A stretch of DNA of 64,000 nt, taken from Tricharina praecox (Eukaryota). A program made the position numbers and the translations under genes. The stretch is from positions 248,001 through 312,000 of the forward strand of contig NW_026250417.1 of NCBI RefSeq assembly GCF_024521635.1, written 5' to 3'. Below the pieces are notes generated by a model. The model did no database searches and was not told the DNA's origin. It saw nothing but the letters and a program-made list of their open reading frames with translations. Shown here piece by piece: positions 10,875-63,789 of this stretch (positions are counted from its first letter, which is position 1; each line of letters begins with the position of its first letter).

Positions 10875-11000
10875 CAAAAATTGCGATGCCGAAAGACCCT
10901 AAGATCATTCGCAGGGACTCGATTCTCGCAGTGCAATGAGAACCTTATCTCTGGAGCTTTGCTGATGGTTGAGCCAGCGAAGTCGCATCAAAGTAAGTAT
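10875..11000 (-). ncRNA. U1: U1 snRNA-like copy 1 (subtype B; 5' arm variant AUACUUACUUUG)
   Basis: 5' arm, AUUGCAC loop and AAUUUUUG Sm site; upstream TATAA; coordinates run from +1 to the Sm site. Confidence 0.8.
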
Positions 11001-11193
11001 GAAGAAGAAAAGAAAAGAGGAGGAAGAAGGCGCGGGGACGGGGTATTATAGTTGTTCCAGTGGGGTCGATTTTGGCCGACGGGAAGTAGCTAGCTAGGGT
11101 TTTGACCGAGTGACACGCAGTGTAGCCAAGCTAGTCAGCAGAAAACACCTTTAAAACTCCCCTTCCCCCGCCCATCATTTCCTTTTCTTCTTC

Positions 11194-11320
11194 ATACTTA
11201 CCTTGATGCGACTTTTCTGGCTCAAACAGCAGCAAAGCTCCAGAGACACCCCCTCATTGCACAGCGAGGGTAGCGTGTCTCCGCAAAAGGTCTTCGGGCC
11301 TTTCGGCGTCGCAATTTTTG
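11194..11320 (+). ncRNA. U1: U1 snRNA-like copy 2 (subtype A)
   Basis: ATACTTACCTTGATGCG...CCCTCATTGCACAGCGAGGG...GTCTTCGGGC...GCGTCGCAATTTTTG; TATA degenerate (TTTAAAA). Confidence 0.85.
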
Positions 11321-12836: not shown

Positions 12837-12962
12837 CAAAAATTGCGATGCCGAAAGACCCTAAGATCATTCGCAGGGACTCGATTCTCGCAGTGCAATG
12901 AGAACCTTATCCCTGGAGCATTACTGCATGTTGAGCCAGCAAAGTCACATCAAGGTAAGTAT
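12837..12962 (-). ncRNA. U1: U1 snRNA-like copy 3 (subtype B)
   Basis: All U1 motifs present; stem I has some mismatches; TATAAAA upstream. Confidence 0.8.
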
Positions 12963-13150: not shown

Positions 13151-13277
13151 ATACTTACCTTGATGCGACTTCGCTGGTTCAACTAGCAGCAAAGCTCCAG
13201 AGACACCCCCTCATTGCACAGCGAGAGTCGAGTGTCTCTGCGAAATATCTTCGGATGTTTCGGCGTCGCAATTTTTG
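13151..13277 (+). ncRNA. U1: U1 snRNA-like copy 4 (subtype A)
   Basis: All U1 motifs present; TATAAAA ~45 bp upstream. Confidence 0.85.
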
Positions 13278-14079: not shown

Positions 14080-14231
14080 CCTCCACCAAAGTGGAGGAAG
14101 ATATCAAAAATTGCGACGCCGAAACATCCGAAGACATTTCGCAGAGACACTCGACCCTCGCTGTGCAATGAGAGGGTGTCTCTAGAGCTTTGCTGATCTT
14201 TGAGCCAGCAAAGTCGCATCAAGGTAAGTAT
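14080..14231 (-). ncRNA. U1: U1 snRNA-like copy 5 (subtype A, intact 3' hairpin)
   Basis: All motifs plus a post-Sm hairpin CCUCCAC-UUUG-GUGGAGG (stem-loop IV equivalent); TATAAAA upstream. Confidence 0.88.
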
Positions 14232-15847: not shown

Positions 15848-15975
15848 CAAAAATTGTGTTGCCGAAAGATCCGAAGATCATTCGCAGGGACTTGTGATTC
15901 TCGATGTGCAATGAGAACCTTATCCCTAGAGCTTTGCTGATTGTTGAGCCAGTAAAGTCGCATCAAGGTAAGTAT
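15848..15975 (-). ncRNA. U1: U1 snRNA-like copy 6 (subtype B)
   Basis: 5' arm, AUUGCAC loop, Sm site; TATAAAA upstream. Confidence 0.8.
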
Positions 15976-16412: not shown

Positions 16413-16802
16413 TAGACCAGATGTGGTGGGCGAAATGCTCGAGGGGGTCTTTTTTACTTTGTTGGCCGGTTGTTTGTTTTGTCATTGTCCGTCATCATCT
16501 GCGCATTCATATACTCATCTCGCCATTCAACTCGCGGGGTACTTGAGGTTCATCACCTGAAGAGCACAGGTGGCTCTTTTCTTTCATTGTCGTTTCTCTC
16601 TCTAGACAAATACAATCGGTCTTCTATATTATTAAACAAGGTTGTCTGAGGGTCATCACGTCTCCAGTGCTTCACTGCCCAAAGCACTGCCCGCTAATGC
16701 CTCCTCCATTTTGGCCGAGTGACACGTAGTGTAACCAAGCCTCCAGCAGAAAGCGCCTATAAAACCACCCCCTTCTCCGCTCACGGTTTCCTTTTCTTCT
16801 TC

Positions 16803-16928
16803 ATCTCACTGCATGCGGCTTTGCTGGCTCAAGAAGCAACGAAGCTCCAGCGGCAACACCTTCATGGCACAGCGAGGGGCGAGTGTCTCTGCGAAAGGGC
16901 TTCGGGCCTTTCGGCGTCGTAATTTTTG
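16803..16928 (+). pseudogene. U1: U1 snRNA-like copy 7, degenerate
   Basis: 5' arm replaced (ATCTCACTGCATGCGG), U1A loop AUGGCAC; Sm site and stem III retained. Confidence 0.75.
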
Positions 16929-30529: not shown

Positions 30530-31965
30530 ATGCAGACCTCGCACCTTCGTCTCGCGCGAGAACTTGGGACGCCGGGGGCGCACTACGGACTGGAGCTGTG
30601 GCGGAACAGCGAGCGGTGGCATTCACTGGGCCTAAGGACTGATGTCGTTGATACCGGCGGAGTCAGCGGAGTCGGCGGAGTGCATAAAAAGGGAGCCACG
30701 GCACTCGATATCGACCGCCAGACGGGGCGGTAGTACGTTCCCCTTTAATTACTGGTTGGTTGGATTATATACTGACATAAAAACCTCCAGCCTCCTCGCC
30801 GCTGGCGCCACAGGAGCCGTCTCGCTGCACGACCTTTCCGCCGGCGGCGCCCCGCCGCAGACCGCCGCCGCAGCAGAAGGCGGCCACAAATTCACCGCCT
30901 CATCCATCTGCTTCTACCCTTCAGACGCAGACCTGTTCATTTCCGGGAGTTTCGACGGCACGGTGCGGGCATGGGACACGCGGGAGCTCTCGGTAGCGCA
31001 CACGTTCCGGATCTCGCGAGCGGTGCACGCAATCGCGATGGCGCCGCGGGCGCGGCACACGCTGATTGCGGTTGCGGCGGCGGCGGCGGCAGTGCGCCTG
31101 CTGGATCTGGGCAGTGGCGCCGCGGCGCAGGAGTTGATCGGTCATGTCGGCGCGGCGTGTTATGCTGTGGCGTGGAGTACGAGGGATGAGAACTTGCTGG
31201 CTTCTGGGGGCGTGGATGGACAGGTTAGACTGTGGGATGTTAGGATGGCAAGGGCATGCTTGGTTAGTTTGGATTGCGAGGGGGCGGGGAGGGGGAATGT
31301 CGATAGGAGGAATCGCGCACATGATGGTTCGTGGTTTGGTTGCATGGGACGTGGGAGGACGGGCTTTGGCTAACGGGTGGGTGTAGGTGTAGTGAATGGA
31401 TTGACGTGGAGTGAGGATGGCACTTCGCTTGTGAGCCTCGGTCACGACGACAAGTTACGAGTGTGGGACCTTTCCACGGGCTCAAACGTCCCTGTACGTC
31501 CCCCGTCCCCCGTCCCCCGTCCCTTCTCGCGTCCCAAGACTGGCTGATCCCTTAATCCGGTGTTACAAACAGACAGACTTCTCACCGGTTATCCGCAACC
31601 GACAACTGTCTAACTGCGATCCCGTACTGACATGCTTACGTCACTCGGACCCCCAGCTGGTGTTTGTCCCCTCTGTCGGCGAGATCCTAGGATTCCACTT
31701 TACCGAAGGAAACGTTGTCCTCCGGCAGGAGGTAACACAGCACAAAGTCAGTGCGCTCGTGCAACGGCCGCACCATCCCGCTGAGCTGTATTACGGCTCT
31801 ACCGGTGGCGAGATTGGCATGCTAGCTCCGCCTCTAGATCAGGACGGTGGTGGTGGCGAAGACGATGGTGGGGACGATGGATCAAGCGCAGCGGGAGGGA
31901 AGGACAAGGCTGTCTTGGATGCCATCTACCAATCTTTAGTTCGCGCTCCAATGACCTTCACCTGA
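30530..31965 (+). CDS. RAD28: WD40 DNA excision repair protein ERCC8/CSA (Rad28/Ckn1-like)
   Basis: ALDIDRQTGRY|LLAAG, HKFTASSICFYPSDADLFISGSFDGTVRAWDT, VRLLDLGSG, LASGGVDGQVRLWDVR, NRAHDG; 3 introns. Confidence 0.85.
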
Positions 31966-44763: not shown

Positions 44764-46162
44764 GGCTGCGGTACTGGCTGAATAGGGATGTGTCGGTAAG
44801 GTGGTGTGGACGTGGGTTGGCGATGGAGCTTGGAGCTTGCTGAGTACTGTTCGAGTGGGTAGCCTTGGTGGGGCTTGGTGTGGGGGGAAGCCGCTCCATG
44901 TGGCTGTCGCCTAGTGTAACTGCCAAGTTCATTTTCTGTACTGGACAGGGGAGCTCACTCGCAAACACCTAAAAAATGCGAGTATCGAAACACACCATTA
45001 CTGCCTACTCAAGTGAGCAAGTCCACGTTTCCGTACATAAGTGCTTACTTGCTGAGTTGTTTGTGTAGCGAGTTTATACGAGAATACCCAGGTGGGTAGC
45101 AATCCTGTACATTGACAAGTTTTGGAGCTGTGATCAGCTTACAACGCCCGAATTGATACCCAATTGTAGTATAATTGATAAAAGTAAACCAACAAAAACT
45201 CCCTAAGTACTTGCTTTAAACACCAGCAAATAAACTTATCCTAGGTGTTTCCGGACATTATGGTTGCCGTGGGAAGTCGTGGTTCCGGTAGGCGGTAGTC
45301 CCGAGACCTATGGCTCGACCGATCACGACTATCTGAGAGGGTGGGGCGGGATTGTATACCGAGCTCTACGTGCCTCCTACATCAGCTTCCAGAGAGAAAA
45401 TGACACCACAGGACTTGACGGCGTTATGGACCAACGGGAGCGAAAGGGTCGGACGCACGTCGGTCCCGTCATCAGAGTACGGACGAGCAAAACGACCCTC
45501 TCCTACGGACTAAAGCATGAGGAATAGGCGGAGAAGGGGTCATTGTATTGATGGGTGAATTTAGATGCTTGGTTGCATACGAGAGGGCCAGGCCGTTCGA
45601 GATGAGGTGCATGCATCATGGGGCTGAAGTCACTGCTCATCTCGTAAAGTAGGGTGTATGTAGAGTAGACTGACGAACGTTCGACAGCTTAGGGTTGAAG
45701 GATGGCAGTGTTTGTGCTCTAGACACGTAGTCTAATTCAAGTTTGCCGCGCTGGGTACTCAGGAACGATGACTGGCGGTCGAGAGATCACTGCTCTGATG
45801 AATCCCGGAGGATGAGAGGGCTGCAAAAGGCTCAAGTGAAGTTCTTCATCACCACGATCGAGATGGTATTGCCGTTCGGATTCGTCGGGTTGGGCTCACA
45901 GCGTGTGTGTGGGGTCTCAGCATCAGACACCACCCATCGCGATACGAACGCTTGAAAAACTTGAGCTTCGCTGTCTCTGCCCCGTTGGCGCGTGCGGAAA
46001 GACTAGAGTACATACTCTAGATGACCTGAGCGAGAACTTCATCCGTCTTCAGAGCAAAAGGAAGTCCCCATCGATGTAACGTGTCTTCTTCGACGTCTCA
46101 GCCTCCTGTGGAGAGCCCAGCACCATCAACGAAAACGCCTTCATCAAAAAGGAGGAATAAAT

Positions 46163-46288
46163 CAAAAATTGCGACGCCGAAAGGCCCGAAGACCTTTCGC
46201 GGAGACACGCTACCCTCGCTGTGCAATGGGGGTGTTGCCTCCGGAGCTCGCTGATTGTTGAGCCAGCAAGTCGCATCAAGGTAAGTAT
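46163..46288 (-). ncRNA. U1: U1 snRNA-like copy 8 (solo, subtype A)
   Basis: All U1 motifs; its own upstream TATATAAA and a different upstream sequence; family 3' tail extends to ~46050. Confidence 0.85.
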
Positions 46289-46630
46289 GAAGGAGAAAAG
46301 AAGAAGAGAGTAAGAGACGGGAGGAAGGCACTGTTTATATAGGTGGAAGTCTTGGCACTATACCGGATCGGAGCTAGCGTCATGTCACCAGCAGTCACCC
46401 GCCCTTAGAATTCGAGAGCTAGCGCTCCCAGCCATAAATACTACCAATTTCACGTACAGCTTTAGAATTCATGAATCACCGTAGCAAGCACGCTCTTCTC
46501 AGAGTAAAATTGATTCCCATACATTTATGTAATATTACCGCCGTTTAAAGGAAATCAAGGCATCTCGCCTAAGTATCATGCACACATACCGGTAATCTGG
46601 TTCTCCATAGAGACTCCATGTGTCCTTTCT

Positions 46631-47696
46631 CTACCGCCTATCGCGATACTCCACATCCTTATGTCTCCTGTCTACACGTGCACGGTCTCTCGACTTTGAC
46701 CGTGACCTGCGCCGTCTGTTGTCATCGCGTCGGCGGTCCCGATGATCGTTACCGCCCCGTCCTCTGTCTCCGCCCTCGTCCATCCTGCGGTTTCTATCAT
46801 CTCTTCTCTCACCCGCCCCTTCTTCCCTATCCCTATCCCTTCGGCCTCCTCGAGCTGGAGGCGCACCTCCTCGCTCCCGATCCAATCCCTTCATAACTCT
46901 CTCAGCCGCGCTCTCGGCTATTCTCTCCCTTGGTTGTGCTTGTACCTGTGGGGCGTGCACTGAACCAACAAACTCCACTTTATCCCTTCCAGACTCCAGC
47001 TGCACCTTCTCCCTCGCCTCGCCAATCATGGCCTGGTTATATGCCAATGCCTCGACAAAAGCGTCCTTAGGGAACTTTGTTGGATCCCACAGATCAGACG
47101 ATAGATTGGTTGCGTATTGATCCTTTCCGGCAAAGCCTACAAACTCGGTCAACTTCTCCAAAAGATTCGGATTTCGCAATGACGACGAGCGAAGTAGCTT
47201 CTCGTTGAAATGCACGCCTTTCGTCTTGAGGTCCCGGAAGTGTGCGAATTTGGCCGCGAGTGGTGCCGGTGGCGACCCTGGTGGTGATGGGGGAATGGTG
47301 GGGATAGAGGGAGGCAGCGTGAGCGTGTGGATGAGGTTTCGCGAAGCCGTGTAAGGTGAAAGCGGTGGGCCTTGGTCTTCCTCGTCTTCGTCCTCGTCCG
47401 ACGGTGGTCGTTGCGGACCTACGATCGGGGCATCGTCTGTCGATGGTTGCTCATGTTCTGGCGACGCCTGAAAAGAACCGGGTGAATGACGACTGGAAGC
47501 GCCATCTATGGTCGTAGTTATTGGACCGGGGGAGAGGTTCTGTGACTACGAGTCCAGTATGTTAGTTGACAGCACGGCGGAACGGCTACGTAGGGTGCAC
47601 CTGTGGGGGAGTTGTTTGATAGGGCTGCTGTGGCACTGAAGCGGAAGTTGAAGGAGCTTCATCCTCGCTATCGCTACCATATTCGACGAGACCCAT
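46631..47696 (-). CDS. HCNGP/SAP30BP-like protein
   Basis: MGLVEYGSDSEDE, IPPSPPGSPP, KGVHFNEKLLRSSSLRNPNLLEKL...QYATNL..LWDP; one intron. Confidence 0.88.
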
Positions 47697-48876: not shown

Positions 48877-49553
48877 ACCAAGGTTAATCTAGATGACCTC
48901 AATGAAGTGCCTTTGATGAAGCCTGAACAGGCATGCAGTAAGATTTTGGCAGCCTGAAGATAGAACGTATCACTCAAAACTCATCCATCGTGGTCACTCA
49001 CCATGCATATCGCTGGTGGGTTTCGCCGTTGTGTCTCATGCGCGACTGGCGCCGCTCTAGATCGTCCGCGCTAGTAGCCCTGTAGATTCCCAGGCGGCCT
49101 TGCCTACTGCCCATAAGCACTTCATCAATCAGTCACGTAGATACATGAATACATTTGTGGGTAAGCCCGTGGACACACATACAGTACTCACTTCATGTAA
49201 AGTGCGCGAGCAGAAGGGATAGTTCTGAGCAAGAACAAAAGCCCACGCAAACTTATATGGTGTGCTTAACCGCCAGAAAATCCCCGAAATGGAGGAGGAG
49301 GAGGAGGAGACATCCATCCTACAATAGTACCTGACTACATCTGGCACAGAGCTGTGAGAGTGATCCTACTCCTGGAGCAGGTCGATAACTATAGCTGCCC
49401 ACAACAGCAGCAGCAGCAACAACACCATCCCATCCCACCCCCCCACCGCCCGCCATCTTCCCCAAGAATTTCCTTCGAAGCCTCGACTTCCCAAAGGAGT
49501 ATCCAAGTATCGACGCAGATCCCCAACTCCCCATCGTTTCCGTGGCGAGCAAT

Positions 49554-49680
49554 CAAAAATTGTAACGCCGAAACATCCAAAGAGATTTCGCAGAGACACG
49601 CGACCCTCGCTGTGCAATGAGGGGGTGTCTCTGGAGCTCTGCTGCTGTTTGAGCCAGCAAAATCACGTCAAGGTAAGTAT
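49554..49680 (-). ncRNA. U1: U1 snRNA-like copy 9 (subtype A, truncated just after the Sm site)
   Basis: 5' arm, AUUGCAC loop, Sm site; half of the spacer present upstream. Confidence 0.75.
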
Positions 49681-50069
49681 GAAGAAGAAAAGGAAACTGG
49701 GTGGGGGGAAGGGGCGTTTTATAGGTGTTCTGGCTGGAGGGCTTGGCGGCACAACGTGTCACTCGGTCAAGACGGAGGGGGCACTAGCGGGTAGTGCTTG
49801 AAAGACAGCTTTTGCAGCAGGCAGCGGCACAGCAACGGGCCATGGTGGTAGAGCTTTCTCTCGACCTGCGAAGCTGGCAGGAAGGTCGGGAAGTTGGTGG
49901 TCGCCATGGTCTAGTAAGACAGCAATATTGCCATGATCTGTCTTTGGAGCAAGAGGGAACACCCATTCCCCCTCTATGTAGCGTGTTTTCCTCGACGTCT
50001 CAGCCTCCTGTGGAAAGCCCAGCAGCATCAACGAAAACGCATTCACCAATTCAAAGCGGAGGAAGAAAT

Positions 50070-50196
50070 CAAAAATTGCGACGCCGAAACATCCGAAGAC
50101 ATTTCGCAGAGACACTCAACCCTCGCTGTGCAATGAGGGGGTGTCTCTGGAGCTTTGCTGATTGTTGAGCCAGCAAAGTCGCATCAAGGTAAGTAT
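50070..50196 (-). ncRNA. U1: U1 snRNA-like copy 10 (subtype A)
   Basis: All motifs; clean stems I-III; TATAAAA upstream. Confidence 0.88.
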
Positions 50197-50385
50197 GAAG
50201 AAGAAAAGAAAATTTAGTGGGGGGAAGGGACGTTTTATAGGAGTTCTAGGGGGTCGATTTCGCCGACGGAAAGTAGCTACATAGCTAGGGTTTTTGACCG
50301 AGTGACACGCAGTGTCGCCAAGCTAGCCAGCAGCTAACGCCTATAAAACCCCCCTTCCCCCCACCCACCTTTCCTTTTCTTCTTC

Positions 50386-50511
50386 ATACTTACCTTGATG
50401 CGACTTTGCTGGCTCAATAATCAGCAAAGCTCCAGGGATAAGGTTCTCATTGCACAGCGAGAATCGAGTCCCTGCGAATGATCTTAGGGTCTTTCGGCAT
50501 CGCAATTTTTG
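50386..50511 (+). ncRNA. U1: U1 snRNA-like copy 11 (subtype B)
   Basis: ATACTTACCTTGATGC...CAGGGATAAGGTTCTCATTGCACAGCGAGAATCGAGTCCCTG...GCATCGCAATTTTTG; TATAAAA at 50342. Confidence 0.88.
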
Positions 50512-50641
50512 TTTGCTTCTGCGTTTTCCGTCGGTCACTTGGGCGCTCAGTGAGGCCGAGGTGGCGAAGGATGATGATAGGATCTACGGCGTGGTGTATG
50601 GGTTGTTCACACTGTGAGTAAACCCTAGACAGCGCAAGCAC

Positions 50642-51200
50642 ACCGCCCGGACGCTCGGTGCGGATGGTGTCATTACCTTTCAAGACCCAGACTCGGAAGC
50701 ATCTCTTCGGGTGCTGCCCCGAATGACTGAGCCGGTACAAGATCCTGTGGGCAGAGGTTCGGAAGGGGACAGGGAGGGCCGAGGCTCGCTTCAAGATCCG
50801 AGACCTCTTCGCAGACGCGCGGTGCAACCAGGTCATCCTAGATTTCCTCTCATCCAATGATGTGGGCAGACGGGTCTTAGAGGTCGGTGAGGAAGATGCT
50901 GCAAGTGAGGTGTCCGAGTGAGAGCTTAAGGAGATATGTGGAGATGAAGCGAGAAGAGGAGGAGGAGGGCACTGAGGTTGAGGAGTCGGTGTCACTCCCG
51001 CTGTTCCTCTTCACACCCTTCTTCGTGGCATCTCCTGATGAAAAGTCAGGGTGCGGCAAGGCGGGGTGAGGAGCGGGCTTTCGTTTCCTAGCTTTATTTC
51101 CTTCACATGCACCTATTTTTGGGAAAAGCCGGGGCGGAGAGCAGGGAAAGCCACATCGAACCGCTCAACGAAAGCTGGGTTGGACAGTGGGGTAGAAACG
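50642..51200 (+). mobile_element. 5'-truncated, degenerate LINE (Tad-like) ORF2 C-terminus plus 3'UTR
   Basis: Across a frameshift and a stop it reads DARCGWCHY.FKTQTRKHLFGCCPE*...ILWAEVRKGTGRAEARFKIRDLFADARCNQVILDFLSSNDVGRRV, the CCHC zinc-knuckle end typical of fungal LINE ORF2. Confidence 0.8.
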
Positions 51201-51358
51201 GGAGGTGTATGCCCGGGGCGGATATTGCCATGACCCAACTTCGGAGCACGAGGGAGTCCCCATCGATGTACGTAACATGTCTTCTTCGAAGTCTCGGCCT
51301 CCTGAGGAGAGCCCAGCACCATCAACGAAAACGCCTTCATCAAAAAGGAGGAAGAAGC

Positions 51359-51482
51359 CAAAAATTATGACGCCGAAAGACCCTAAGACCATTCGCAGAG
51401 ACTAGATTCTCGATGTCTAACGAGAACCTTATACCTGAAGCTTTGCTGCTCGTTGAGCCAGCAAAGTCGCATGCATATAGAT
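51359..51482 (-). pseudogene. U1: U1 snRNA-like copy 12, degenerate (subtype B)
   Basis: 5' arm replaced (ATCTATATGCATGCGAC); U1A loop mutated (GUUAGAC); Sm site kept. Confidence 0.72.
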
Positions 51483-51992
51483 GGTGAAGAAGAAAAGGAA
51501 AAGAGGAGGAAGGGCGGGCGGGGACGGGGGATTTTATAGGTGTAGGCTTCCAGGTCGGCGAGATTTCGCCGCTCGTGCATCTCCCATGCCCGCTGCCAGC
51601 TCAGACAGAACCCGCTCTCAAACCGAATGACAACAACCCTCTCCGCCCACGGTCACACCCCGGACCGAGCTGGTCTCAACGAGTCCCACTCTGTTCACAA
51701 CTCCTTGGCCATCGGTCTCACCTGGGTCCGCAGCTCAGAGTTGAAACGACGCGCCAAGGCGTCGTTTCTGCTGGGTCCCACAGCAGCTATGCACAATCCC
51801 GCCGCTCGCAAGTCGGCCGGCCAGCTTCGATTCCTGTCTCGTCTGCTCTCGAGCTCCAAGTTCCAAGTGGCAAGTCCTAAGCCCCTATCTAGCTAGCTAC
51901 CTACTTTCTGTCGGCCAAAATCGACCCCCCCGGAACAGCTATAAAACCCCCCATCCCCGCCCGTCCTTCCTCCTCTTTTCCTTTTCTTCTTC

Positions 51993-52119
51993 ATACTTAC
52001 CTTGATGCGACTTTGCTGGCTCAAACAGCAGCAAAGCTCCAGAGACACCCCCTCATTGCACAGCGAGGGAAGCGTGTCTCTGCGAAATGTCTTCGGATGT
52101 TTCGGCGTCGCAATTTTTG
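51993..52119 (+). ncRNA. U1: U1 snRNA-like copy 13 (subtype A)
   Basis: All motifs; TATAAAA upstream. Confidence 0.87.
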
Positions 52120-52899
52120 ATTTCTTCCTCCGCTTTGAATTGGTGAAAGCGTTTTCGTTGATGGTGCTGGGCTCTCTCTTCTCGGGAGGCCGAGACGTCG
52201 AAGAAAACATGCCACACATCGATGGGGACACTCCCTCTTACTCTTTCCACCCGGCTGTCCCTGACCGCTGGCCGCGAGCTCGATGCCGGCTCCCTATTGC
52301 TCTCCGCCCAGCTCTCCCCGAGCGTCAACCTTCCCTGCTCGCTCCCCGCTCAACTCAAAAGAATGAATGAACGAAAGTATTCGTCAGTCAAACTCTCGCC
52401 CCGTCCAACTTCCTGTGAGCTCGATTACGAAATCTAGTTCCTCGTCCCTGCCGCCGTGTTCTCTATATACTCCACCGGCCGGCCGTCTCCTCGCCCGTCC
52501 TGTATCCTCTTTCTCGCCCTGGCTCTTACTGCGTCCCAGTCCATCGAGCTGCCTGTAGCCTGGGTGACCCGGCTGGGAGGGATGGGAAGGAAGAGGGGAC
52601 GAAGGCTCTCGGCGGCCTGTCTCCTTTCTTCCGCTCTCGCCACTCTTTCTACCGCTGCGGCTCTTGCTCCTTCTCTATGTGAGGACCGCCGTCGCCGCTG
52701 CTATGTCCGAGGTTTGGCTCGGGGTTTCTGGTCCGTCTTCTGGTCCCAGGGGGGGTACCCTTCTGCGACCCACGTCCGTGCTGTCGAGGAAACCGAGGAC
52801 AGCCGTAGTACAGTATTGGTTCGCGAGGAGATCCTCGATCTTGAATCTCCCCCCCCCCCCCCTCCCTTCCCCCACCCATCGTTTCCTTTCTTCTTCATA

Positions 52900-55766
52900 C
52901 CCTTGTAAAACAAGGGGGAGTTTTTTAAATAGTGGAGCGACTGTTGTGCCATGATTTTTTTTTCAAACCCGTAGGAAAAGTAAATACCACATCGTGATAG
53001 TTGGGAATTATACACATGTCAAATTATTGACCTATAAAAGCCACTCAAAACATTGTACATTCCGTGTTAGATTTACAGACGTGTTGCAAGTTTTTAACGG
53101 AGGGAGTGGATATACAGTTCACAGACTTTTCCCGTGAAAATTGGAAGCCGTAGTACAAGTGATCCCGATTATAGAGAGTTAAATGACCGGCAATTAGACA
53201 TATTTAAAGAATTACTTCGAGTTTTTTTTCAATATGTTGCAAATCTCTCCTATGTAGTTAAAATAAAGCGTTAAAGTGCATTAAAACGTTGCAGCATCGT
53301 TTTCTTGGAATTTTTGAACCATTTTTGAACCATTTTTGAACTGTTGAAACTTGGGAGCAAGAGTGCAACGTGTGAATATCAGAGATGAATCGGGACGCTT
53401 AGCCTTGAAACTAGGCTCGGGTTTCCTCGCTTATGCAGTATTTTTTCACATTGGTCTTGAAGCACTAAGCACATATGGATTTATATTCTACTATATATTA
53501 CTACCTACGGGGCCAACAGGCAGTATCCAGAGCGGGCCGGCAGGCTGGCACATACTGCTGCTAGCCCTGCTGCCACTGACCCTCGACTTGCTGGATCCAT
53601 TGTGGTGGAGAGATGGAGGGGCTGTCGGCGGGAGGAATGGTTGCGCCGAGATGAGGGGTTGTGTCGAGGGGAGGGTTGCGGCGAGGATATAGTTGTGGCT
53701 AGAAAAGATATAAGAGAGAGAAGCTCTTAACGAGAGTAGGAGTTGCGGCGGGAGGAGGGGTTGCGCCGAGAGGAAGGTTGCGCCGAGAGGGGGGGTTGTG
53801 CCGAGAGGAGGGGTTGTGCCGAGAGGAGGGTTGCGGCGAGGATATAGTTGCGGCTAGAAAAGCTATAAGAGAGAGAAGCTATGAGCGAGAGTAGGAGCTA
53901 CGGCGGGAGGAGGAGTTACGCCGAGGGGAAGGGAGAATAGAGTTGTTGCTAGAAAAGCTGTTTGAGAGAGAAGCTATCAGCGAGGGTAGACTCTAGAATT
54001 GCGGCCAGAAGTTGCGGCAAGAATAGAGTTGCGCGGAGAGTACATAGCAGTTGTGGCGAGGGTAGAGATGCAGCAAAGCTAGCTATAAAAGAGAGAAACT
54101 ATCAGCAGGAGTAGAATGGCAGCGGGAGAAGTAGCTATATGAGTAAGGAGATATCAGCGGGAGTAGCAGTAGCAGTAAGGTGGAGGGTGGGGTGGGGGGG
54201 GATCACAGAGGGGCCAGCCGGGCGAGCAGCAGTAGTGAGTGGGGGATATTCACAGCGCAGCCAGTACTGTATACACGTTAGCACGAGGGCAAATTCGAGG
54301 GCAAATCCAGTACTGTAACAACGGTAGCGAGGGGGCATTTCTAGCGAGAGTGCATTTCGTAGGCGATTCCAGCGCTGTATCAGCGGCGGGTCCAGCAGGG
54401 CATGTAGTAGTGGGGAGAGGGAAGGGCAATCACCATGTATTGCGCCGAGAGGAGGGGTTGTGCGGGGAGGAGAGGAGAATAGAGTTGCACCGAAAGTAGA
54501 CTTGCGGCGAGAAAAGCTATGAGAGAGAGAAGCTATCAGCGAGGGTAGATATGCGGCCAGAATAGAGTTGCGCCGAGAGTAGCAGTTGCGGCGGGGGTAG
54601 GAGCTATATCATATGAGCTATCAGTAAGAGTAGTAGTAGCAGTTGCGGCGGGAGTAGCAGTAGCAGGAGGGAGTAGGAGCTATATGAGAAATGAGCTATC
54701 AGTGGGAGTAGCAGTAGTAGTTGCGGCGCGAGTAGGAGCTATAAGACAGAGGAAGATTAGCGAGAGTAGTAGTTGCAGCACAGAAGGGAGAATAGCAGTT
54801 GTGGCGAGAGTAGAGCCTTGAGAGAAGTGCTATCAGCAGCAGTAGTAGTAGGAGCTATATGAGAGAAGTGCTATTAGCGAAAGTAGTTGCGGCGGGAGGG
54901 GGATAGCAGTTGCGGAGGAAGTAGTAGTTTCAGTGGGAGTAGCAGTTGCGGGGGGGGGGGAATAGCAGTTGCGGTGGGGGAGGGAGTTGCGGTAAGGGGG
55001 GTAATAGCAGTTGCGGTGGGGGGGAATAGCTGGGAGTGGGAATAGCTGGGAGTGGGAATAGCTGGAGGTGGGAATAGCAGTTACGGGGGGGGAGGAGTTG
55101 CGGGGGGAGGAGGAGATGTGGGGGAGGAGGAGTTGTGGGAAAAGAAGAAGAAGAAAAAGAAGAAGAGGCGGACGGCTAAGAGAGCATACGACCCCGCCAT
55201 GCCCGCCATGCCCGCCAACGTTGGTGCCGTCTACTAACCACATTCGTCTTCTCCCACCGACAGGAGTCCTTCACCTCCTCCTGTTGCCGACACCTCCTAC
55301 CACAGCTCCTGAGCCATTTCACGAATTGACTAAGTCATTCCTAGAGTCATCTCGCGGATTGACTCAGTCATTCCTGTTATTACTCCCTCCCGTGGCAGCT
55401 CGCTCATCGCTCCCCACACAGGGAAACAGTGGAAAAATGCCAAGACAACGCTTAAGTGAGCACCAACGATATATCTCGAACTTGTGTTTTTATATTTCCA
55501 CCAGTTCCTGTTTACTTAAGCGTTAGATCAACGTATGACAAATTCTCACATTTTCTGGCTTTTTGCCGAGTTTACAATTTAAAATGGGTGTACTGTCTAT
55601 CATCATATTATTTCCGCATCGTTTTACGTAGCTCACGTTATTCTAGATGCAATAGTTGCGGAATAGTTGGGCAATACCGCGGGGCCGTTTGTGAAATCTA
55701 ATGATCGCGTAACCATTTCCCAACCCACCGCTCACGTTTATAAAACCCCCCTTTTTTTTACAAGGG
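52900..55766. mobile_element. 2.87-kb TIR DNA transposon (TA TSD) inserted in U1 copy 14
   Basis: TIRs CCCTTGTAAAA... / ...TTTTACAAGGG; TA duplicated (52898-99, 55767-68); removing it restores TTCTTCATACTTACCTTG; no intact transposase seen. Confidence 0.9.
53640..55140 (+). repeat. Purine-rich degenerate minisatellite inside the TIR element
   Basis: Recurrent GAGAGAGAAGCTATCAGCGAG and TAGCAGTTGCGG units. Confidence 0.75.
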
Positions 55767-55917
55767 TACTTACCTTGATGCGACTTTGCTGGCTCAACGA
55801 TCAGTAAAGCTCTAGAGACACTCCCTCATTGCACAGCGAGGGTCAAGTGTCGCTGCGAAATGTCTTCGGATGTTTCGGCGGCGCAATTTTTGATATCTTC
55901 CTCCACTTTGGTGGAGG
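55767..55917 (+). ncRNA. U1: U1 snRNA-like copy 14 (subtype A), interrupted at nt 2-3 by the transposon
   Basis: TACTTACCTTG...ATTGCAC...AATTTTTG plus the CCTCCACTTTGGTGGAGG hairpin; its upstream T-tract is left behind at ~52860-52899. Confidence 0.82.
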
Positions 55918-55994
55918 CGTTTTCGTTGATGGCGCTGGGCTCTCTCCTCGGGAGGCCGAGGCGTCGAAGAAAACGTGTCACATCGGTGGGGAAG

Positions 55995-56390
55995 GGTCAC
56001 GCTCTCTTTCATGGCATATCCTGATGAAGCGGCAGGGGGCGAGGCGGGGTGACGAGCGGACTGTTATTTCCTAGCTTTATGTATTTCTTTGATGCGCTCT
56101 ATCTCTATCGCCGGGACCGGTTGGGGCGGCGGGCAAGGGAAGCCACATCGGGCCGCTCGACGAAAGCCGGGTTGGACAGTGGCGCACGCCCTCTTTCATG
56201 GCATCTCCTGATGAAGCGGCAGGGGGCGGAGCGGGGCGGGGTGAGGAGCGGACTGTTATCTCCTAACTTTATTTCTTTGGTGCGCTCTATCTCTATCACT
56301 GGGACAGGCCGGGGCGGCAGGCAAGGGAACCCACATCGGGCCGCTCGACGAAAGCCGGGTTGGACAGTGGCGTGGAAACGGAGTGTGTAG
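55995..56390 (+). repeat. Two tandem ~185-bp LINE 3'UTR-like fragments
   Basis: CACGC..CTCTTTCATGGCAT.TCCTGATGAAGCGGCAGGGG...CGAAAGCCGGGTTGGACAGTGGCG occurs twice and matches 51010-51195. Confidence 0.75.
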
Positions 56391-56537
56391 GGGCGGATAT
56401 TGCCATGACCCGTCTCCGGAGCAAGAGGAGTCCCCATTCCCCATCGATGTAACATGCCTTCTTCGACATCTCAGCCTCCCGATGAGAGAGAGCCCAGCAC
56501 CATAAACGAAAACCTTCATCAAAGGGGAGGAAGAAAT

Positions 56538-56664
56538 CAAAAATTGCGACGCCGAAACATCCGAAGACATTTCGCAAAGACATGCTTCCCTCGCTGTGCA
56601 ATGAGGGGGTGTCTCTGGAGCTTTGCTGCGGTTTGAGCCAGCAAAGTCGCATCAAGGTAAGTAT
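56538..56664 (-). ncRNA. U1: U1 snRNA-like copy 15 (subtype A)
   Basis: All motifs; TATA degenerate (TACAAAA). Confidence 0.82.
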
Positions 56665-56859
56665 GAAGAAGAAAAGGAAACGGTAGGTGGGGTGGGGGAA
56701 AGGAGCGTTTTGTAGGTGATTTGGTGGGCCGATTTCGCCGAAGGAAAGTAGCTAGGTAGCTAGGGTTTTTGACCGAGTGACAGGCAGTGCCGCCAAGCTA
56801 GCCGGCAGACAACACCTAAAAAAACCCCCTTCCCCCCACCCAGTTTTCTTTTCTTCTTC

Positions 56860-56985
56860 ATACTTACCTTGATGCGACTTGCTGGCCCCACAATCAGCGA
56901 GCTCCGGAGGCAATACTCTCATTGCACAGCGAGGGCAGCGTGTCTCTGTGAAAGGTCTTCGGGCCTTTTGGCGTCGCAATTTTTG
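56860..56985 (+). ncRNA. U1: U1 snRNA-like copy 16 (subtype A)
   Basis: All motifs; TATA degenerate (TAAAAAAA). Confidence 0.8.
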
Positions 56986-57256
56986 ATTTCTTCCTTTCTT
57001 ATGAAGGCGTTTTCGTTGATGGTGCTGGGCTTTTCGAAGGAGGCCGAGATGTCGAAGAAAACGGCATGAAGGATTGCGGCGTGGTGTATGGGTGTTGTAC
57101 ACAATGTGAGTAAACCCAAGACAGCGCAAGCAGAGTGTAAAGCAATATTCATGGTCCCCAACTTCATGGCTTGCATCCATCCCGTCAGCTGTCGTATCAG
57201 GACTCCCGGTGCGACCTTGTACGTAGCCACCATATGTACCGTAGCTTACAGTAAAG

Positions 57257-57470
57257 ACGCCGACGAGCGGTACAGCCAGGGGGTAGTTCCTAGATCCTAG
57301 ATTTCCTCTCATCCACCGATGTGGGCAGTTGGACCATGGAGGTCGCTGAGGAAGATGCAGCATGTGAGGTGTCCGGGTGGGAGCTCAGGGAGCGGGAAGA
57401 GAGGGAGGCGGAGCTGAGGCGAGAAGAGGAGGGGTCACGCCCGCTGTTCCTCCTCACGCCCTCTTTCATA
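57257..57470 (+). mobile_element. LINE ORF2 C-terminal fragment
   Basis: ADERYSQG..ILDFLSSTDVG...EEDAACEVSGWELREREE; homologous to 50810-51025. Confidence 0.75.
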
Positions 57471-57558
57471 CATAACGTGTCTTCCTCGACGTCTCGGCCT
57501 CCCGAGGAGAGAGAGCCCAGCAGCATCAACGAAAACTTCACCAAAGCGGGTAAGAAAT

Positions 57559-57685
57559 CAAAAATTGCGACGCCGAAAGGCCCTAAGACCTTTCGCAGAG
57601 ACACTCGACCCTCGCTGTGCAATGAGGGGGTGTCTCTGAAGCTTTACTGCTGTTTGAGCCAGCAAAGTCGCATCAAGGTAAGTAT
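57559..57685 (-). ncRNA. U1: U1 snRNA-like copy 17 (subtype A)
   Basis: All motifs; TATAAAA upstream. Confidence 0.85.
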
Positions 57686-57874
57686 GAAGAAGAAAAGGAA
57701 ACGATGGGTGGGAGAAAGGGGCGTTTTATAGGTGATTTTGGTGGGGTCTATTTCGCCGACGGAAAGTAGCTAGCTAGGGTTTTCGACCGAGTGACACCCA
57801 GTGTCGCCGAGCTAGCCAGCAGGAAACACCTATAAAATCCCCCTTCCGCCATCCACTGTTTCCTTTTCTTCTTT

Positions 57875-58000
57875 ATACTTACCTTGATGCGACTTTGCTG
57901 ACTCAAACAACAGTAAAGCTCTAGGAATAAGGTTCTCATTGCACAGCGAGAACCGAGTCTCTGCGAATGATCTTAGGGTCTTTCGGCATCGCAATTTTTG
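57875..58000 (+). ncRNA. U1: U1 snRNA-like copy 18 (subtype B)
   Basis: All motifs; TATAAAA at 57831. Confidence 0.85.
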
Positions 58001-61000
58001 TTTGCTTGCTTGCTTGCTTCGGGTTTTCCATCGGTTACTTGGGTGATCAGTGAGGCCGAGGTATCGAGGGAGGATGGTATGAAGAATTTGCGGTGTGCTG
58101 GCAGCGCAGAGCGGACTGAGGACATGCCAGGTAATCGTAGGGGATATTTCCTCGATTACCTAGAGCAGACCCCCACCCCCCAACAATTGTAACTTGTGCG
58201 GTTGGACTGGGAAAATCGAGTAAAATATTCGGCTTGAATGAGAATTGGATACATTTCAAGTGGTTCAACGGCGGTCGGATTCCCAAGTGGTTAGATTTCT
58301 CTGATTTTGTTCCAGGCTAACTACATAACAAACTGCCAACTCTGGCATTTGCAAATCCAAAGGGCGGGTGGGGCAAGTGAGAGGATGTGGAAAGAGGAGG
58401 CCACGAGTGAATGAGGCAGGAACAGGAGGCGCGGAGGCTATGGTTGCAGGTTGCAGCAACTTAGAGGCGAATCAATTGCTCGATCAAGGGAAGATACCGG
58501 TACATCGATATATGTCAAGGATTTCGCGACAACAGCAAGGCTTCAGCCTTCAGTGGAAACAGAAACATGTTTTATCAGATTATCAATACACCCGACGATT
58601 GAACCATTTGATCTTATATTCTGAAAAGAGCTGCTCAATACCAGCAGGAATGACAGGAATGGACAGTAAACCAAGTGCCGTGTGGTGAACTTTGAAGGTT
58701 GGGAGAACGCCGACTCTGACGTTGTTCAGACCACCGCGCAATAGCGGCTATGCTGGCAGCTGTCATGATACCTAGTCCCTCTCAGTTGGAAATGGATAGT
58801 ATTCTTGCAACTAATCAAAGTCAAATCGATTGCATTACCACCAAGCCAGAGACGTTGGGATCAATGTTAGTCCCTGCTCGAGTGTTGATCAGAGGGGTCG
58901 TTCGGTGGCTAAGAGTGATAACGTATGATAATGCTTGAAGAGTCGGAATATTGTTCTCGATCAGGCTATTAGGTCGGGAGGGAGGGCGATTATACCTATT
59001 GCAGCGCATGGGGAACTTTCATTGACAACAGGAGGCGGGATATTTCCTCCACCAGCTCATGGTAGGGCTGTGTTGCCGTTCAAGTCGGAGTGCAGTCCTC
59101 TGCGGTGGGGGTGGGGTTTTGAGAGACTGCTGAATTTGCGTGACGGCCTCAAGGTAACTTGTTGTATGTATTGCTACTGTCACCATTCATACCTACTTCC
59201 GGAGTTCCGGCCACATTCTCTACAGAAGTTCCTCTATCGTTTTAACCGCAAAAGAAGTGGAGGAATCTTTCTTCGCTTTTAGCTACATAGCGGAAGAGCA
59301 GTCCGCTTGGGACTTTCGATGGAACCTGCTCTGGAATCTGGTCTGGCCGCTAATTCCGATGGATCCCCACCTTGCCTACATATACCCCTCATGTAACTAA
59401 CGAGCTGGCTGGGCATCATGGAAGAGGTGGGGCATGGGCAGTATCCAATAAGGGAAGGCCCTCCTCCCTCCTCCCTCCTCCCTCGTCTCTGCTCCGGGGA
59501 CGCACGTTGCACGCATATATGCAGAAGCCCATCCAAATTCCAGAATCCATCCTCCAAAGCCAGCAGAAACCGGTTGTTTCATGCCAATGCCAATATCTAC
59601 CATGCCAACGCCAAACTAACCGCCAACCCCGACTCAAGTTCCGATCGATGCCTTGGCTGTATATCTATAGCCTGAGTGATACGCAGTGACTTCAAAGCCG
59701 GCACCTCGGCCCGCAACATTTCTCGGCGCGATCAGTTGCGCTGGATGGATGAGTGCGGTGCCGAGCGAGCACCCCGCATCCCACGCCCGCTGCACTGCGG
59801 GCTTACGGCCCCCATGGTCAATATATGCGCGATAAGTATGTGAGTATCATACATACATGCTGCAATACTCAATTTGGCTCGAGGGTGGTGGATAATGGAC
59901 AGTGGAGTTTGGACGTGCATGTCGCCTACATAGGGATTTATTATCGTCGCGTATGTAAGCTCTGGGGAGGCAGCTGGGCAGCGGGATAGGTGAGTAGGTA
60001 GAGAGGTAGGAAGGTATGTAGACAGGCAGGCAGGTATCTACCGAGCGCTCTCGGTGAAGCCCAACGAACGAAAGAATCACAGTTCCAGGACCTCTGGCGG
60101 TGGTCAGCGTTGGCGTGGAGCGACTCCGAAGGATCCGATACGTCAGTCGCCGCTGGCGTGCTGTCAATTTTAATCAATGATGGGTAGGTATCGCGGTGAC
60201 GCTGAGTGCATGTGCCGATGCGTTTTGGATGACGAGCGAACGGAATGTATGGGTATCATGGTCGCGCCGCGCCGTGCCGCGCCGTGGGGCAGATCCGCGG
60301 CGCGCGGGGGGAGGGGAGTGTTGGTCATGGCTACGTGATACCCAGTGAGTGGTTGAGTGATCCAGTCGGCAAGCTCGGTTCGACGGAGAGACGAAAACGC
60401 ATGAACTGGGCGACTGGGAACGCGGGTCAGGTGGTGCCTTTCGTTGGCTCGTTTCGGCGGTCTTACTTCCTGCTTGCGTGTGATAGATCCGAGCTTCTCT
60501 GCAGAGTGAAACCAGTGCGATACAGTGCGTACTATAGTTACCGATCGCCAGCCGAGCATGAGGGCAGACGAACTTGGGGGCGTGATGGCGATTTAAACAA
60601 AAAGAACAAACCACTCTCCCCCCCTCCGCCGCCTCCTCCTGTCTGCGGATGAGACGAAACGAGACCGTTATGGGGGAACTCAACTCCAGATTTTTTCTGT
60701 TGAGGAATCAAGAGTCGGAGAGGGGGGTGCGTGGACCATCCGTCCCTGCATGCAGATGCTAGGGATTTACATTAGATCCAGAGACAGCAATCCGCCACTA
60801 TCGAAACGGAGAAAAACCTGGCCAAAGAGACGCCTGGGATCCCGCAGCAGCTTCCGTGGGTGGATGTGGAGTATGTACGCCCCAGGGCGGTGAGAACTGA
60901 GCGTTTAGAACCGGAATCCGTGCAGAGTGTGGACGCTGTAATTGTGTATTTGTGTATTTGTGTATGTGTGTACAACATAACTGACGGTTGAATTGAAGCG

Positions 61001-61535
61001 AGAAAAGGGCGGCAAAATCATCAATCAGCCATGGCCAGGGCGCATGTTCTGGAATTTGGAATCATATCTAAAGGCAGGCAATTACGAGTGCAGCGTCTCC
61101 TTGTTCCGAGAACCCTCCTTGAGTACCCACTTTGCTTCTTCCCACTCTACCTCCTCCTCCTCTCCGCCGCTTTCCCTCGGCCGTCACTCCTTACAATAGT
61201 CCCGGGGAAACGATACTTACCAAAGTATCTTAGCACCGGCTTTTCATTTTCTTCTCGAACCCACTTGCGGCTACACTTCCCTCATATATCGCCAGCCGTC
61301 GCCCCTCTCCCTCCCTGAAAAGGGACCATTGTCGTTGTCGCTACTGTCACGATCTTGTACCTCGCAGCTCCCACTTGTACCTACACTTGTACACCTGTAC
61401 ACTTGTACACCCACCTGTGCCAGCACATATCAACACCTCGCTCGAACAACGATTCCCTCCACATCCCTTGCATCCCTCGAACAAGAACCATTAACATACA
61501 CATTTATTCGCACTTCGACACAGTCTACAATCATC

Positions 61536-63079
61536 ATGGCCGCCTGCACCGGTTCGGCAGGACTGGTCAACACCTGGGAACGCGACGACACTGATGTTCA
61601 GCCGCAGAGAAAGGTCAAGTATCGCAGGAAACACTCTCGACAGCTCTCCACCATAGATTATCTGGAGGGCGAATCGGATTTGCTGTTGAAAGTATGGTCT
61701 ACGGCTCCCCCTCCCCCTCCCCCCCTCCCCCCGGTCGCAAGCTACAGTGCAACCGCGACACGCACCCGCGCACCCACGCACGCGCACACGACAAACAAAA
61801 AACAATGGCTGACATGGTGTACCATCTCCAGGTCGACCACTTCCTCACCGAGCTGGAGCAGCGGCTGGACCATCTCGAGAAATACGGCAACCTCAAGTTC
61901 GACCAGGGCATCGAGCGCGCGTGGAGTACACTGCAGGATGTGCGACTGGAGTGCGGGCGCATGGGAGGAGAGGTGATCGACGAGGGCAAACGGCGAGCCA
62001 AGGCCATTGTCGACATTCTCGAATCGCGGTACCACGAGGCATTGGAGGCTAAGGATACACTGCCCGGCAAGGTCGCGGCCAGCGTGCACTTTCTGGATGA
62101 ACTGCTGGAGGATTTTGAGGCGCGGGCACAGGCGAGTCTAGACAGGAAGCTCGATCGCGCCAGGCGCGGGATGGAGGCGGTCGCAGGCGCAAGGGATATG
62201 CTTTCGGTTTCGATCGAGCGGGCCATCGCGCTGGCGAAGGAGCGGAGGTTGATCACGTACGAGGAGCTGCCAGTGCCGTGGAGGGTCAACCCGCACATCC
62301 TCGACGGCTACAGGTTCACCGAGAGCAAGGTCGAGTGCGTCAAGTCGGTGTTCTGTTCGTTCAGCAACGAGACTTGCAACATCTGGTCGCACGGCCTGGG
62401 CTTCTTCATGGTCCTCGCGATCGCCTTCTACTTCTACCCCACGTCGCAAATGTTCCACTACCACACCACCGCGGACAAGCTCATCAACGGACTGTTCTTC
62501 CTCGCCGCGGCTAAGGCTATGGCTTGCAGCGCCATCTGGCACACCTTCGCGGCGATCGCGCACCAGGATGTGATGGAGCGCTTCGCGTGCGTCGACTACT
62601 CGGGTATCTCGCTGCTGATCGCAGTGAGCATCATGACAACCGAATACACCGCCTTCTACCACGAGCCCGTGAGCCGGTGGATCTACATGACGGCGACGTG
62701 TCTCTTTGGCATCGCAGGCGTAATCCTGCCATGGCGGCCCATCTTCAACCGAGCGGACATGCGAGTCTACCGAGTCGCATTCTACCTCACACTCGGAGCC
62801 ACCGGCGCCTTCCCCATGATCCAGCTGTGCTTGACTAGGGGCCCGGCGTGGGTCGGCCTCTTTTACGCACCCGTGCTCAAGAGCGTGCTCGTGTACCTCA
62901 TCGGCGCTATCTTCTACGCTCTTCAGATCCCCGAGAGATGGTACCCCGGCTGCTTCGACTTGGTCGGTGGCTCCCATAACATCTTCCACTGCATGGTTGT
63001 CTGTGGAATCCTGTTCCACTGGTACGCCATGCACGACTTGTTCCACCTCGCCTTGAGCCGCATGCCCGTCGGCATCTGA
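61536..63079 (+). CDS. IZH3: PAQR / hemolysin-III family membrane protein (Izh3-like)
   Basis: MAACTG...LLLK|VDHFLTELEQRL; LPVPWRVNPHILDGYRF, SNETCNIWSH, ACVDYSGI, IPERWYPGCFDLVGGSHNIFH. Confidence 0.92.
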
Positions 63080-63789
63080 GTATTGCGGGTTGGTTTTTCC
63101 CGCATGTCTCTTTGCCTGCATCCTCAGTCGCTCACTCGTCCGTCAGTCCTAGAATTTGACGTATAACTAGAGCCGGCCGTTGGTTCTGGCGACATGGAAG
63201 GCACAATTATTTTCTCCCGTTCCTGTACATTCAGCTTATTGTCGCAACCCTTCCTTCTTTTCCGTTCCTTTACCTTCGAAGTTTTCTTACCACCACCTTT
63301 TTTCCCTTTACTGTGAATATCGTCCCCCCACCTTCCTTTCTTCTTCAATACCTTTGCCCTTCGCATAGAGGTTCTTCATTTTACCTTCTTTCTCTTTCTC
63401 TTTTTTTCTTTCTTTTTTTGGTTTTGTCCCTTATTTCGTTCGTTTTTTGGATGGATGGTATGGTATGGTGTTGAGGTTACCTAGCTCGGAGAGATACAAA
63501 CTTGAAAGAAGTACCTGTGGCTATGCGCCGAATCGAGACCAAAGTATGCAATTGAAACTTGAGCTTGAGCTTGTGATGCAGATGATGATGTTGATGGCTG
63601 GCTGGCTGGCTGACTGGCTGGCTGGCTGGTTGGCTGGCAAGGTGTTCATAACTTCATATATGTCGGAGTACGTAAGCGTGTTTGTGGATTTATTTCCGTA
63701 TATATTGTACGGGTGTTGGCAGTTGCCTGGGGAAGTAACGATGTGACGATGTGATGCGCCGAGACATAGGGTGTCCTGTGGTGCCCTGT

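Follow-up and report, generated by a model that had tools for sequence, protein, structure and literature searches.

A probable family of clustered U1 snRNA genes in a Pezizales-like ascomycete, with two old classes that differ by pair-keeping changes

What is a fungal genome doing with many diverged versions of what appears to be a single spliceosomal RNA gene, and could the differences between them have been kept by selection for the fold of that RNA? The window analysed here, a single stretch of DNA of 64 kb, raises both questions. An earlier note on it had described 18 U1-like copies in two subtypes, A and B, separated by compensatory base-pair changes, and had proposed that the subtypes diverged under selection on RNA structure. 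In the available text of the surveys that bear on this, S. cerevisiae carries its snRNA genes as single copies and metazoans carry theirs in several copies, variants included (PMC10645366), concerted evolution is the usual mode among snRNA paralogues (PMC4291461), more than three U3 copies are rare in fungi and no diverged U3 paralogue families are seen there (PMC5832005), and only four Sm-class snRNAs are reported for two Pezizales genomes surveyed with Rfam (PMC11375150).

When the window was searched with the Rfam U1 model (RF00003) in E-value mode, 18 matches were returned with scores of 24.2 to 62.1 bits and E-values of 5e-13 to 0.045, 16 of them at 4.5e-05 or below. An HMM made from the 18 copies recovered the same 18 places across the whole window and none further, and a 15-nt U1 5' motif occurred 16 times in the window, compared with 0.97 occurrences expected by chance. 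None of the 18 copies reached the Rfam gathering threshold for RF00003 (69.5 bits), at which the whole window gave no RNA family match. For this reason, routine annotation pipelines working at that threshold would miss the entire U1 family of the window. The 5' splice-site-pairing end, AUACUUACCU, is exact in 14/18 copies; copy 1 reads ACUUACUU, copy 14 starts with G, and copies 7 and 12 have lost this end. The Sm site, AAUUUUUG, located 3' of helix H, is intact in all 18. Loop II, AUUGCAC with a closing C-G pair, corresponds to the established binding site of U1A (U1A/Mud1-type) and is intact in 16/18, the exceptions being copy 7 (AUGGCAC) and copy 12 (GUUAGAC). In single-sequence folding, the canonical four-way junction was the minimum-energy fold in 12 of the 18 copies.

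The copies lie in two clusters, seven at 10.8-17.0 kb and eleven at 46.1-58.0 kb, and ten of them form five head-to-head pairs (copies 1/2, 3/4, 10/11, 15/16 and 17/18) with spacers of about 190 bp. An assembly artefact or collapsed haplotypes were judged an unlikely source of this set, the 18 copies being all distinct and their flanks 74-86% identical. Protein-coding genes are found nearby at 4540-5415 (+), 30642-31373 (+) and 61190-63088 (+), namely a THOC5-like fragment, a WD40 protein that matches the THOC3 beta-propeller best, though under the Pfam cut-off, and an HlyIII/IZH-type membrane protein. The proximity of two mRNA-export (THO-like) genes to the U1 cluster may be a coincidence. 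For the HlyIII/IZH-type gene, which lies at the window's right end, the best named relatives are from Geopyxis (74%), Pyronema (73%) and Tuber (67%), all Pezizales, and this places the host among the Pezizomycetes. Of the sequencing runs compared with 55700-63100, two gave transcriptome-like contig sets, one metatranscriptome matched to a small extent and three matched hardly at all. Transcriptome contigs identified spliced coding genes in 49400-63100, with introns at 59802-59856 and 61692-61831, the second of which belongs to the HlyIII/IZH-type gene and is thus supported by RNA contigs; the U1 copies were left uncovered by these contigs, which come from poly(A)-like libraries in which small non-polyadenylated RNAs are not expected, so that this result carries no weight for or against U1 expression.

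Alignment of the 18 copies confirmed the membership of the two types as first listed, with copies 1, 3, 6, 11, 12 and 18 in B and the other 12 in A, and the stem II and stem III strings originally quoted for them were all found in the copies, including two A forms and one B form of stem III. The A and B bodies differ at about 20 of 127 positions. In type A, stem II consists of a lower helix of 9 bp and an upper helix of 5 bp, while in type B it has a lower helix of 7 bp, a small, rearranged internal loop and an upper helix of 6-7 bp; stem III of B carries one U-U mismatch. A and B do not differ in the 5' splice-site-binding end, in loop II or in the Sm site. The loops and the Sm site had all been described as constant, and this holds for the Sm site (18/18) and largely for loop II (16/18), but not for the remaining two loops: loop III reads UUAG in five of the six B copies and in copy 17, and UUCG or UUUG elsewhere, while in loop I 3-4 positions vary, and they do so inside each type, not as a difference between A and B. 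Type A is itself heterogeneous and comprises A1, A2 and a third form (copies 8 and 16), whose two members have both arms of stem I shortened by one base pair, among other common features.

Four two-sided, pair-keeping changes distinguish A from B, of which stem-loop II holds three and stem-loop III one. Lower pair 4 of stem II is A-U in A and G-C in B, and two upper pairs of the same stem, C-G in A, read U-A in each of the six B copies. Pair 7 of stem-loop III is G-C in A1, G-U in A2 and A-U in B, and pair 6, which is G-C in both A1 and B, is U-G in A2.

We then asked how far this pattern goes beyond chance. On the 18-copy alignment, 92.5% of the 731 cells of the canonical structure were paired, compared with 38-44% in slid controls; two-sided changes were observed at 8 pairs, a number reached by 9/500 shuffles, and in 30 cells, a number reached by 0/500. 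A scan of metagenome contigs with a U1 pattern yielded 115 loci, six of them close relatives, and when these six were added to the alignment 95.2% of cells were paired and 13 pairs were two-sided (0/500 shuffles; 4-8 in slid controls). RNAalifold, run on the resulting 24 sequences with no structure supplied, returned the U1 four-way junction, with helix H and stem-loops I-III, in 34 pairs, 12 of them two-sided.

The shuffle controls ignore relatedness; a re-pairing control, by comparison, leaves each column, and with it the phylogenetic signal, intact. Here two columns passed as a pair if they were at least 80% canonical and held a two-sided variant in at least three copies, variable columns only being considered. 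Five of the 10 variable true pairs passed, compared with 19 of 928 other pairs of variable columns (Fisher P=1.6e-6). In a placement test, the real substitutions between representative copies were reassigned at random to sites with a matching base, so that their from-to types stayed unchanged. For the step from copy 17 (A) to copy 11 (B), which involves 21 substitutions (the A-to-B range being 20-21), at least four kept double changes arose in 80 of 200,000 trials (P=4e-4), and for copy 10 (A) to copy 11 (B) at least four two-sided, pair-keeping changes arose in 77 of 200,000 random placements. Within type A, the 11 substitutions that separate the A1 and A2 forms of stem III include 0 that break a pair (P=3e-4 under random placement) and one double transversion, G-C to U-G. 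Thus, compensation in the stems exceeded chance expectation both by placement (P~4e-4) and by re-pairing (P=1.6e-6), for an A/B signal made up of about four two-sided changes, which represent few independent events on one deep split.

Mutation bias or chance could in principle have produced compensation as a by-product, through C-to-T and G-to-A decay (by RIP, or by deamination after MIP-type methylation) on both arms of a helix. C>U and G>A account for seven of the A-to-B substitutions, and a C>U column combined with a G>A column does mimic compensation, which is mostly what is seen in the 19 passing column pairs outside the helices. Nevertheless, RIP indices are normal in both clusters, with TpA/ApT at 0.76-0.85 and (CpA+TpG)/(ApC+GpT) at 1.17-1.18, and the flanks have a transition:transversion count of 192:126, and on these grounds bias of the RIP/MIP type was rejected as the source of the compensation. 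Moreover, substitutions of the same from-to types give four kept doubles in just 4e-4 of random trials, the A1-to-A2 double change consists of two transversions, and every G>A either faces a U or is matched by a C>U in its partner. We therefore consider an origin by mutation bias or chance highly improbable. The proposal that the subtypes diverged under selection on RNA structure is supported by the placement and re-pairing tests, with RIP/MIP bias finding no support. These comparisons show that purifying selection for the U1 fold acted on each class as the two parted, so that each descends from a working U1 gene. The compensated A/B stems support the view that at least the founders were functional variant U1 RNAs, where the words 'at least' are apt given the neutral private changes described below.

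The relatives allowed us to polarize these changes. An HMM search of the 115 loci gave one match per locus, except for a tandem pair, L099/L100, on a single contig; in most of these loci just 0.3-1.5 kb of flanking sequence is present per side, and clustering elsewhere lies outside that reach. With outgroup relatives, the two upper pairs of stem II were found to be ancestrally C-G and lower pair 4 ancestrally A-U, the B states (U-A, U-A and G-C) being derived. G-U intermediates are still found in copies 5, 12, 16 and 18 and in L099. In the tree, the B copies form a clade (99/97), as do the A2 copies (95/98), and copies 8 and 16 fall near the metagenome locus L052, while deeper nodes are without resolution.

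L052 is the syntenic orthologue of the locus of copy 8 (46163..46288, -), which is solitary and has the third, 'A3' form: about 1.5 kb of L052 aligns to 46066-47671 at 84-88%. The two U1 bodies are identical at 119 of 126 positions, compared with 78-83% identity in the outer flanks and 88.5% from +127 to +226, and this comparison is direct evidence for purifying selection on the copy 8 gene. The tandem genes L099 and L100, from a related fungus, lie about 900 bp apart and have bodies that differ at 2 positions, both with a lower stem II that is B-like and an upper stem II that is A-like. Their 3' flanks are unlike each other and correspond to the B-type (L099) and A-type flanks of the window, which implies that the flank dimorphism predates the split of these species.

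The spacers of the head-to-head pairs lie at 11001..11193 (copies 1/2), 12963-13150 (3/4), 50197..50385 (10/11; 189 bp), 56665-56859 (15/16) and 57686-57874 (17/18). Each end of a spacer carries an inverted core promoter of about 48 bp, composed of a TATA box at about -44, a C-rich stretch and a C/T tract that runs to +1, so that these ~190-bp spacers look like bidirectional promoters. Because each spacer has an asymmetric centre, two upstream types result. Of the 18 window copies, 17 have the TATA box and C/T tract, which also occur in relatives and at many other fungal U1 loci; the exception is copy 14 (55766..55892, +; type A2), where the upstream region is rearranged and lacks the C/T tract. 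Among 62 fungal U1 loci, 39 have a strict TATA-like motif at -60 to -25, and the C/T tract ends at +1, so both classes carry the promoter layout of other fungal U1 loci. At about -85, counted from the gene on the right, there is a GAGTGAC motif, and motifs resembling GCCAAG or TCGGCCAAA stand at about -65 to -75; in the spacer of copies 10/11, GAGTGAC and GCCAAG stand in the asymmetric centre. These motifs recur upstream of U1 in relatives and at more distant fungal loci, and are candidate upstream promoter elements of fungal U1 genes.

The repeat units are 250-960 bp long and 74-86% identical, and within them body type is independent both of the upstream (promoter) type and of the 3'-flank type. 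Most clearly, the unit at 12829-13406 (copy 3, B, with copy 4, A) and that at 50062-50641 (copy 10, A, with copy 11, B) are 8.5% different in spacer and flanks and 16.3% different in their bodies, because the body types are swapped. Similarly, copy 6 (B) and copy 13 (A) differ by 7.8% in their flanks and by 16.1% in their bodies. Such swaps between nearly alike flanks indicate that the A/B split is older than these duplications. Gene conversion or unequal exchange would have moved patches the size of a gene body. Copy 4 (13151..13277, +) is a mosaic that joins an A body to a B-type 3' flank. Copy 6 (15848..15975, -) has a B body and a mixed 3' flank, and copy 17 (57559..57685, -; left gene of its pair) combines an A1 stem III with the B-type UUAG loop. 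Within a type, bodies diverge by 5.5-8.2%, only moderately below the 11-12% of the flanks.

The copies differ widely in condition. No pair is broken in copy 5 (14105..14231, -; A2, 41/41 pairs intact), in copy 10 (50070..50196, -; A2, canonical fold at -48.0 kcal/mol) or in copy 11 (50386..50511, +; B, canonical fold at -46.5 kcal/mol), the last two being the A and B genes of the pair to which the earlier note referred; one pair is broken in copy 13 (51993..52119, +; A2) and one in copy 17. Copy 3 (12837..12962, -; B) scores 61.9 bits, and copy 1 (10875..11000, -; B body and B-type 3' flank, one change in its 5' end) 51.7 bits with 2 broken pairs. Its partner, copy 2 (11194..11320, +; type A with an A1 stem III), has 4 broken pairs and scores 38.7 bits. 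Copy 15 (56538..56664, -; A2) is the left gene of a pair with copy 16 (56860..56985, +), an 'A3' form in which loop I is altered and 11 pairs are G-U. Copy 18 (57875..58000, +; B) is followed directly after its Sm site by a short (GCTT)n expansion (58001-58020). In copy 6, helix H is weakened and there are 7 private changes, while copy 9 (49554..49680, -; A2-like, with a unique 3' flank) has 8; private changes are concentrated in copies 9, 6, 18, 14, 16 and 4.

When these copy-private substitutions were classed by their effect on pairing, those of A2 comprised 12 that keep a pair, 6 that break one and 7 at unpaired positions (neutral means 8.8, 7.5 and 8.7; P=0.27), and those of B comprised 5, 9 and 7 (neutral means 4.1, 10.2 and 6.7; P=0.36). 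Hence, pair-breaking changes are not significantly depleted among the private substitutions of A2 or B, so that recent constraint on individual copies is undetectable and the present function of each copy is putative. The picture this suggests, in both classes, is of a few near-consensus genes accompanied by drifting, redundant or dying copies.

Two copies, 7 and 12, have lost both the 5' end and loop II. Copy 7 (16801..16928, +) is A-like and degenerate, with 7 broken pairs and a score of 24.2 bits, and copy 12 (51359..51484, -) is B-like and degenerate, with a score of 25.2 bits. At 16801-16815 (+) and 51470-51484 (-) respectively, both have one and the same substitute 5' end, ..AUCU..UGCAUGCG instead of AUACUUACCUUGAUGCG, and their 3' flanks are 86% alike. 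Since this common end stands on different bodies, it represents a third '5'-end module' that has been combined with both body types. Because loop II is mutated in both, the two copies resemble pseudogenes more than U1 genes that have acquired another splice-site specificity.

Downstream of the Sm site, in the region of stem-loop IV, inspection of RNAfold structures by eye identified clear hairpins of 6-7 bp in copies 5 and 14, that of copy 5 being the strongest, and short ones of 4-5 bp in other A flanks. In B-type 3' flanks the same inspection gave no convincing proximal hairpin after the Sm site, the hairpin being weak or absent. A conserved block of about 60-100 nt follows the Sm site in the copies and in the relatives L052, L053, L071 and L099, as for example at 49965-50069 (-) and 50512-50616 (+). 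In A-type flanks it reads UUUUCGUUGAUG..CUGGG..GCCGAG..GAAGA, and a homologous version is present in B-type flanks. The block could be a signal for 3'-end processing or termination, or part of a longer mature RNA; within it, neither a conserved hairpin nor covariation was convincing (RNAfold, by eye). A 5'-splice-site-like sequence, GUGAGUAAAC, is also seen about 100 nt downstream in B-type flanks.

Given this unevenness, just one working U1 lineage might exist today, for example the syntenic form of copy 8 or a set of A2 master copies, with the other class, most plausibly B, made up of promoter-bearing pseudogenes. The compensated stems would then be ancestral, and would persist because there has been too little time for decay. 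Such a reading could draw on the statistical neutrality of the B private substitutions (5/9/7, P=0.36), on a B-type 3' flank without the proximal hairpin of A flanks and relatives, on the clearly dead copies 7 and 12, and on the fact that all copies score under the Rfam cut-off. Nevertheless, we consider it unlikely. The private changes of A2 are equally near-neutral (P=0.27), so that B is not singled out, and copy 11, a B gene, combines a complete promoter and undamaged motifs with stems in which 0 of 39 pairs are broken; it has 1 private change and outscores every other copy of the window as U1 (62.1 bits). Furthermore, L099, the tandem partner of L100, is B-like both in its lower stem II and in its 3' flank, which indicates that B-type features have been kept in another genome.

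Taken together, these data point to the window probably holding a clustered multigene family of U1 spliceosomal snRNA genes from a Pezizales-like ascomycete, with at least two old classes, A and B. We hold this explanation with the same good, though not full, confidence as a whole, including the shuffling of bodies, the choice of active copies and the interchangeability of the classes that form part of it. Points that weigh against it are the Rfam scores under 69.5 bits, a stem-loop IV that convinces in few A copies, the near-neutral private changes, the U-U mismatch and rearranged internal loop of B, and the moderate gap between body and flank divergence. On this account, an old split would have given rise to A and B, with the single-stranded elements kept and the helices of stem-loops II and III changed in a mostly pair-keeping manner. 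Duplication, together with short-tract gene conversion or unequal exchange, would subsequently have carried body types from one setting of promoter and 3' flank to another, related one. The copies likely to be active are the near-consensus copies 5, 10 and 13 (A) and 11 (B), as well as copy 8, with its conserved syntenic site, while the remaining copies would be drifting with little constraint, copies 7 and 12 being presumably dead. Finally, A and B would most likely yield interchangeable rather than specialised U1 snRNPs, because their protein-binding loops are the same; the identity of these loops, and a body type that is unlinked to promoter type, make redundancy likelier than specialisation.

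Vertebrate U1 isoforms (mouse U1a/U1b, Xenopus) are expressed and developmentally switched, and a specialised use has been proposed for the embryonic and adult U1 of vertebrates and for the variant U1 of flies and humans. Like the window, vertebrate genomes have several U1 genes, whose variants leave the 5' end, Sm site and general fold unchanged; unlike the vertebrate isoforms, the putative window family is fungal, and its body type is unlinked to promoter type. In their available text, the sources that treat such families describe embryonic and adult isoforms in vertebrates (Lund et al. 1985, 1987, cited in PMC4291461) and variant U1 families that keep the fold in vertebrates, flies, the silk moth and humans (PMC4291461, PMC10645366, PMC3561869). 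The four A/B changes keep the fold by compensation in the manner of the variant-U1 families of animals and plants; matched, pairing-preserving U1 variants are known from both of these groups and are unusual for a fungus.

Similarly, A and B could be functionally specialised U1 isoforms, used in different life stages or for different sets of introns and held distinct by selection. The classes do stay distinct although bodies have moved between nearly identical flanks, whereas the bodies of L099 and L100 differ at only 2 positions, and the best-kept copy of each class is found in one and the same head-to-head pair, that of copies 10 and 11. We nevertheless think this quite unlikely, as A and B share one 5' splice-site-binding end, one loop II and one Sm site, the variation in loop I falls within both types and not between them, and the lack of a tie between body type and promoter type speaks against class-specific regulation.

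The comparison with other families, as far as the accessible parts of the sources go, points to what is distinctive here. The Drosophila U1 family, with five genes and three variants (PMC10645366), is likewise a small multigene family with a canonical form and variants; its genes are dispersed and differ at few positions, however, while the 18 copies of the window are clustered, many of them head-to-head, and its classes are about 20 of 127 positions apart. The human variant U1 (vU1) genes are imperfect copies long taken for pseudogenes, some of which have intact promoters (PMC3561869), and they pose the same question of which copies are active; many of them change the 5' splice-site-binding sequence, whereas A and B keep it and only copies 7 and 12 differ. 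The concerted evolution usual for snRNA paralogues fits the relative with L099 and L100, whose tandem genes have near-identical bodies and unlike flanks. In the window, by contrast, homogenisation is incomplete, and two to three diverged body classes coexist in one cluster, a situation unreported for fungal small RNAs in the available text of the surveys cited above. Our search of the literature, which covered open-access text, found no report of a fungal U1 multigene family and returned only papers on animals or on snRNAs in general.

A cluster of 18 fungal U1 genes with diverged, structure-compensated classes thus extends the variant-snRNA families to fungi, and it might serve as a system with a small genome in which to ask if variation among snRNAs has consequences. 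It is conceivable, if rather doubtful, that this filamentous fungus keeps two or three structurally distinct U1 isoforms by selection, despite gene conversion between shared bidirectional promoters, and that these have different roles in splicing or transcription control, for example in vegetative growth and in fruiting-body development. If that were true, it would be the first case of selected, distinct U1 isoforms outside animals and plants.
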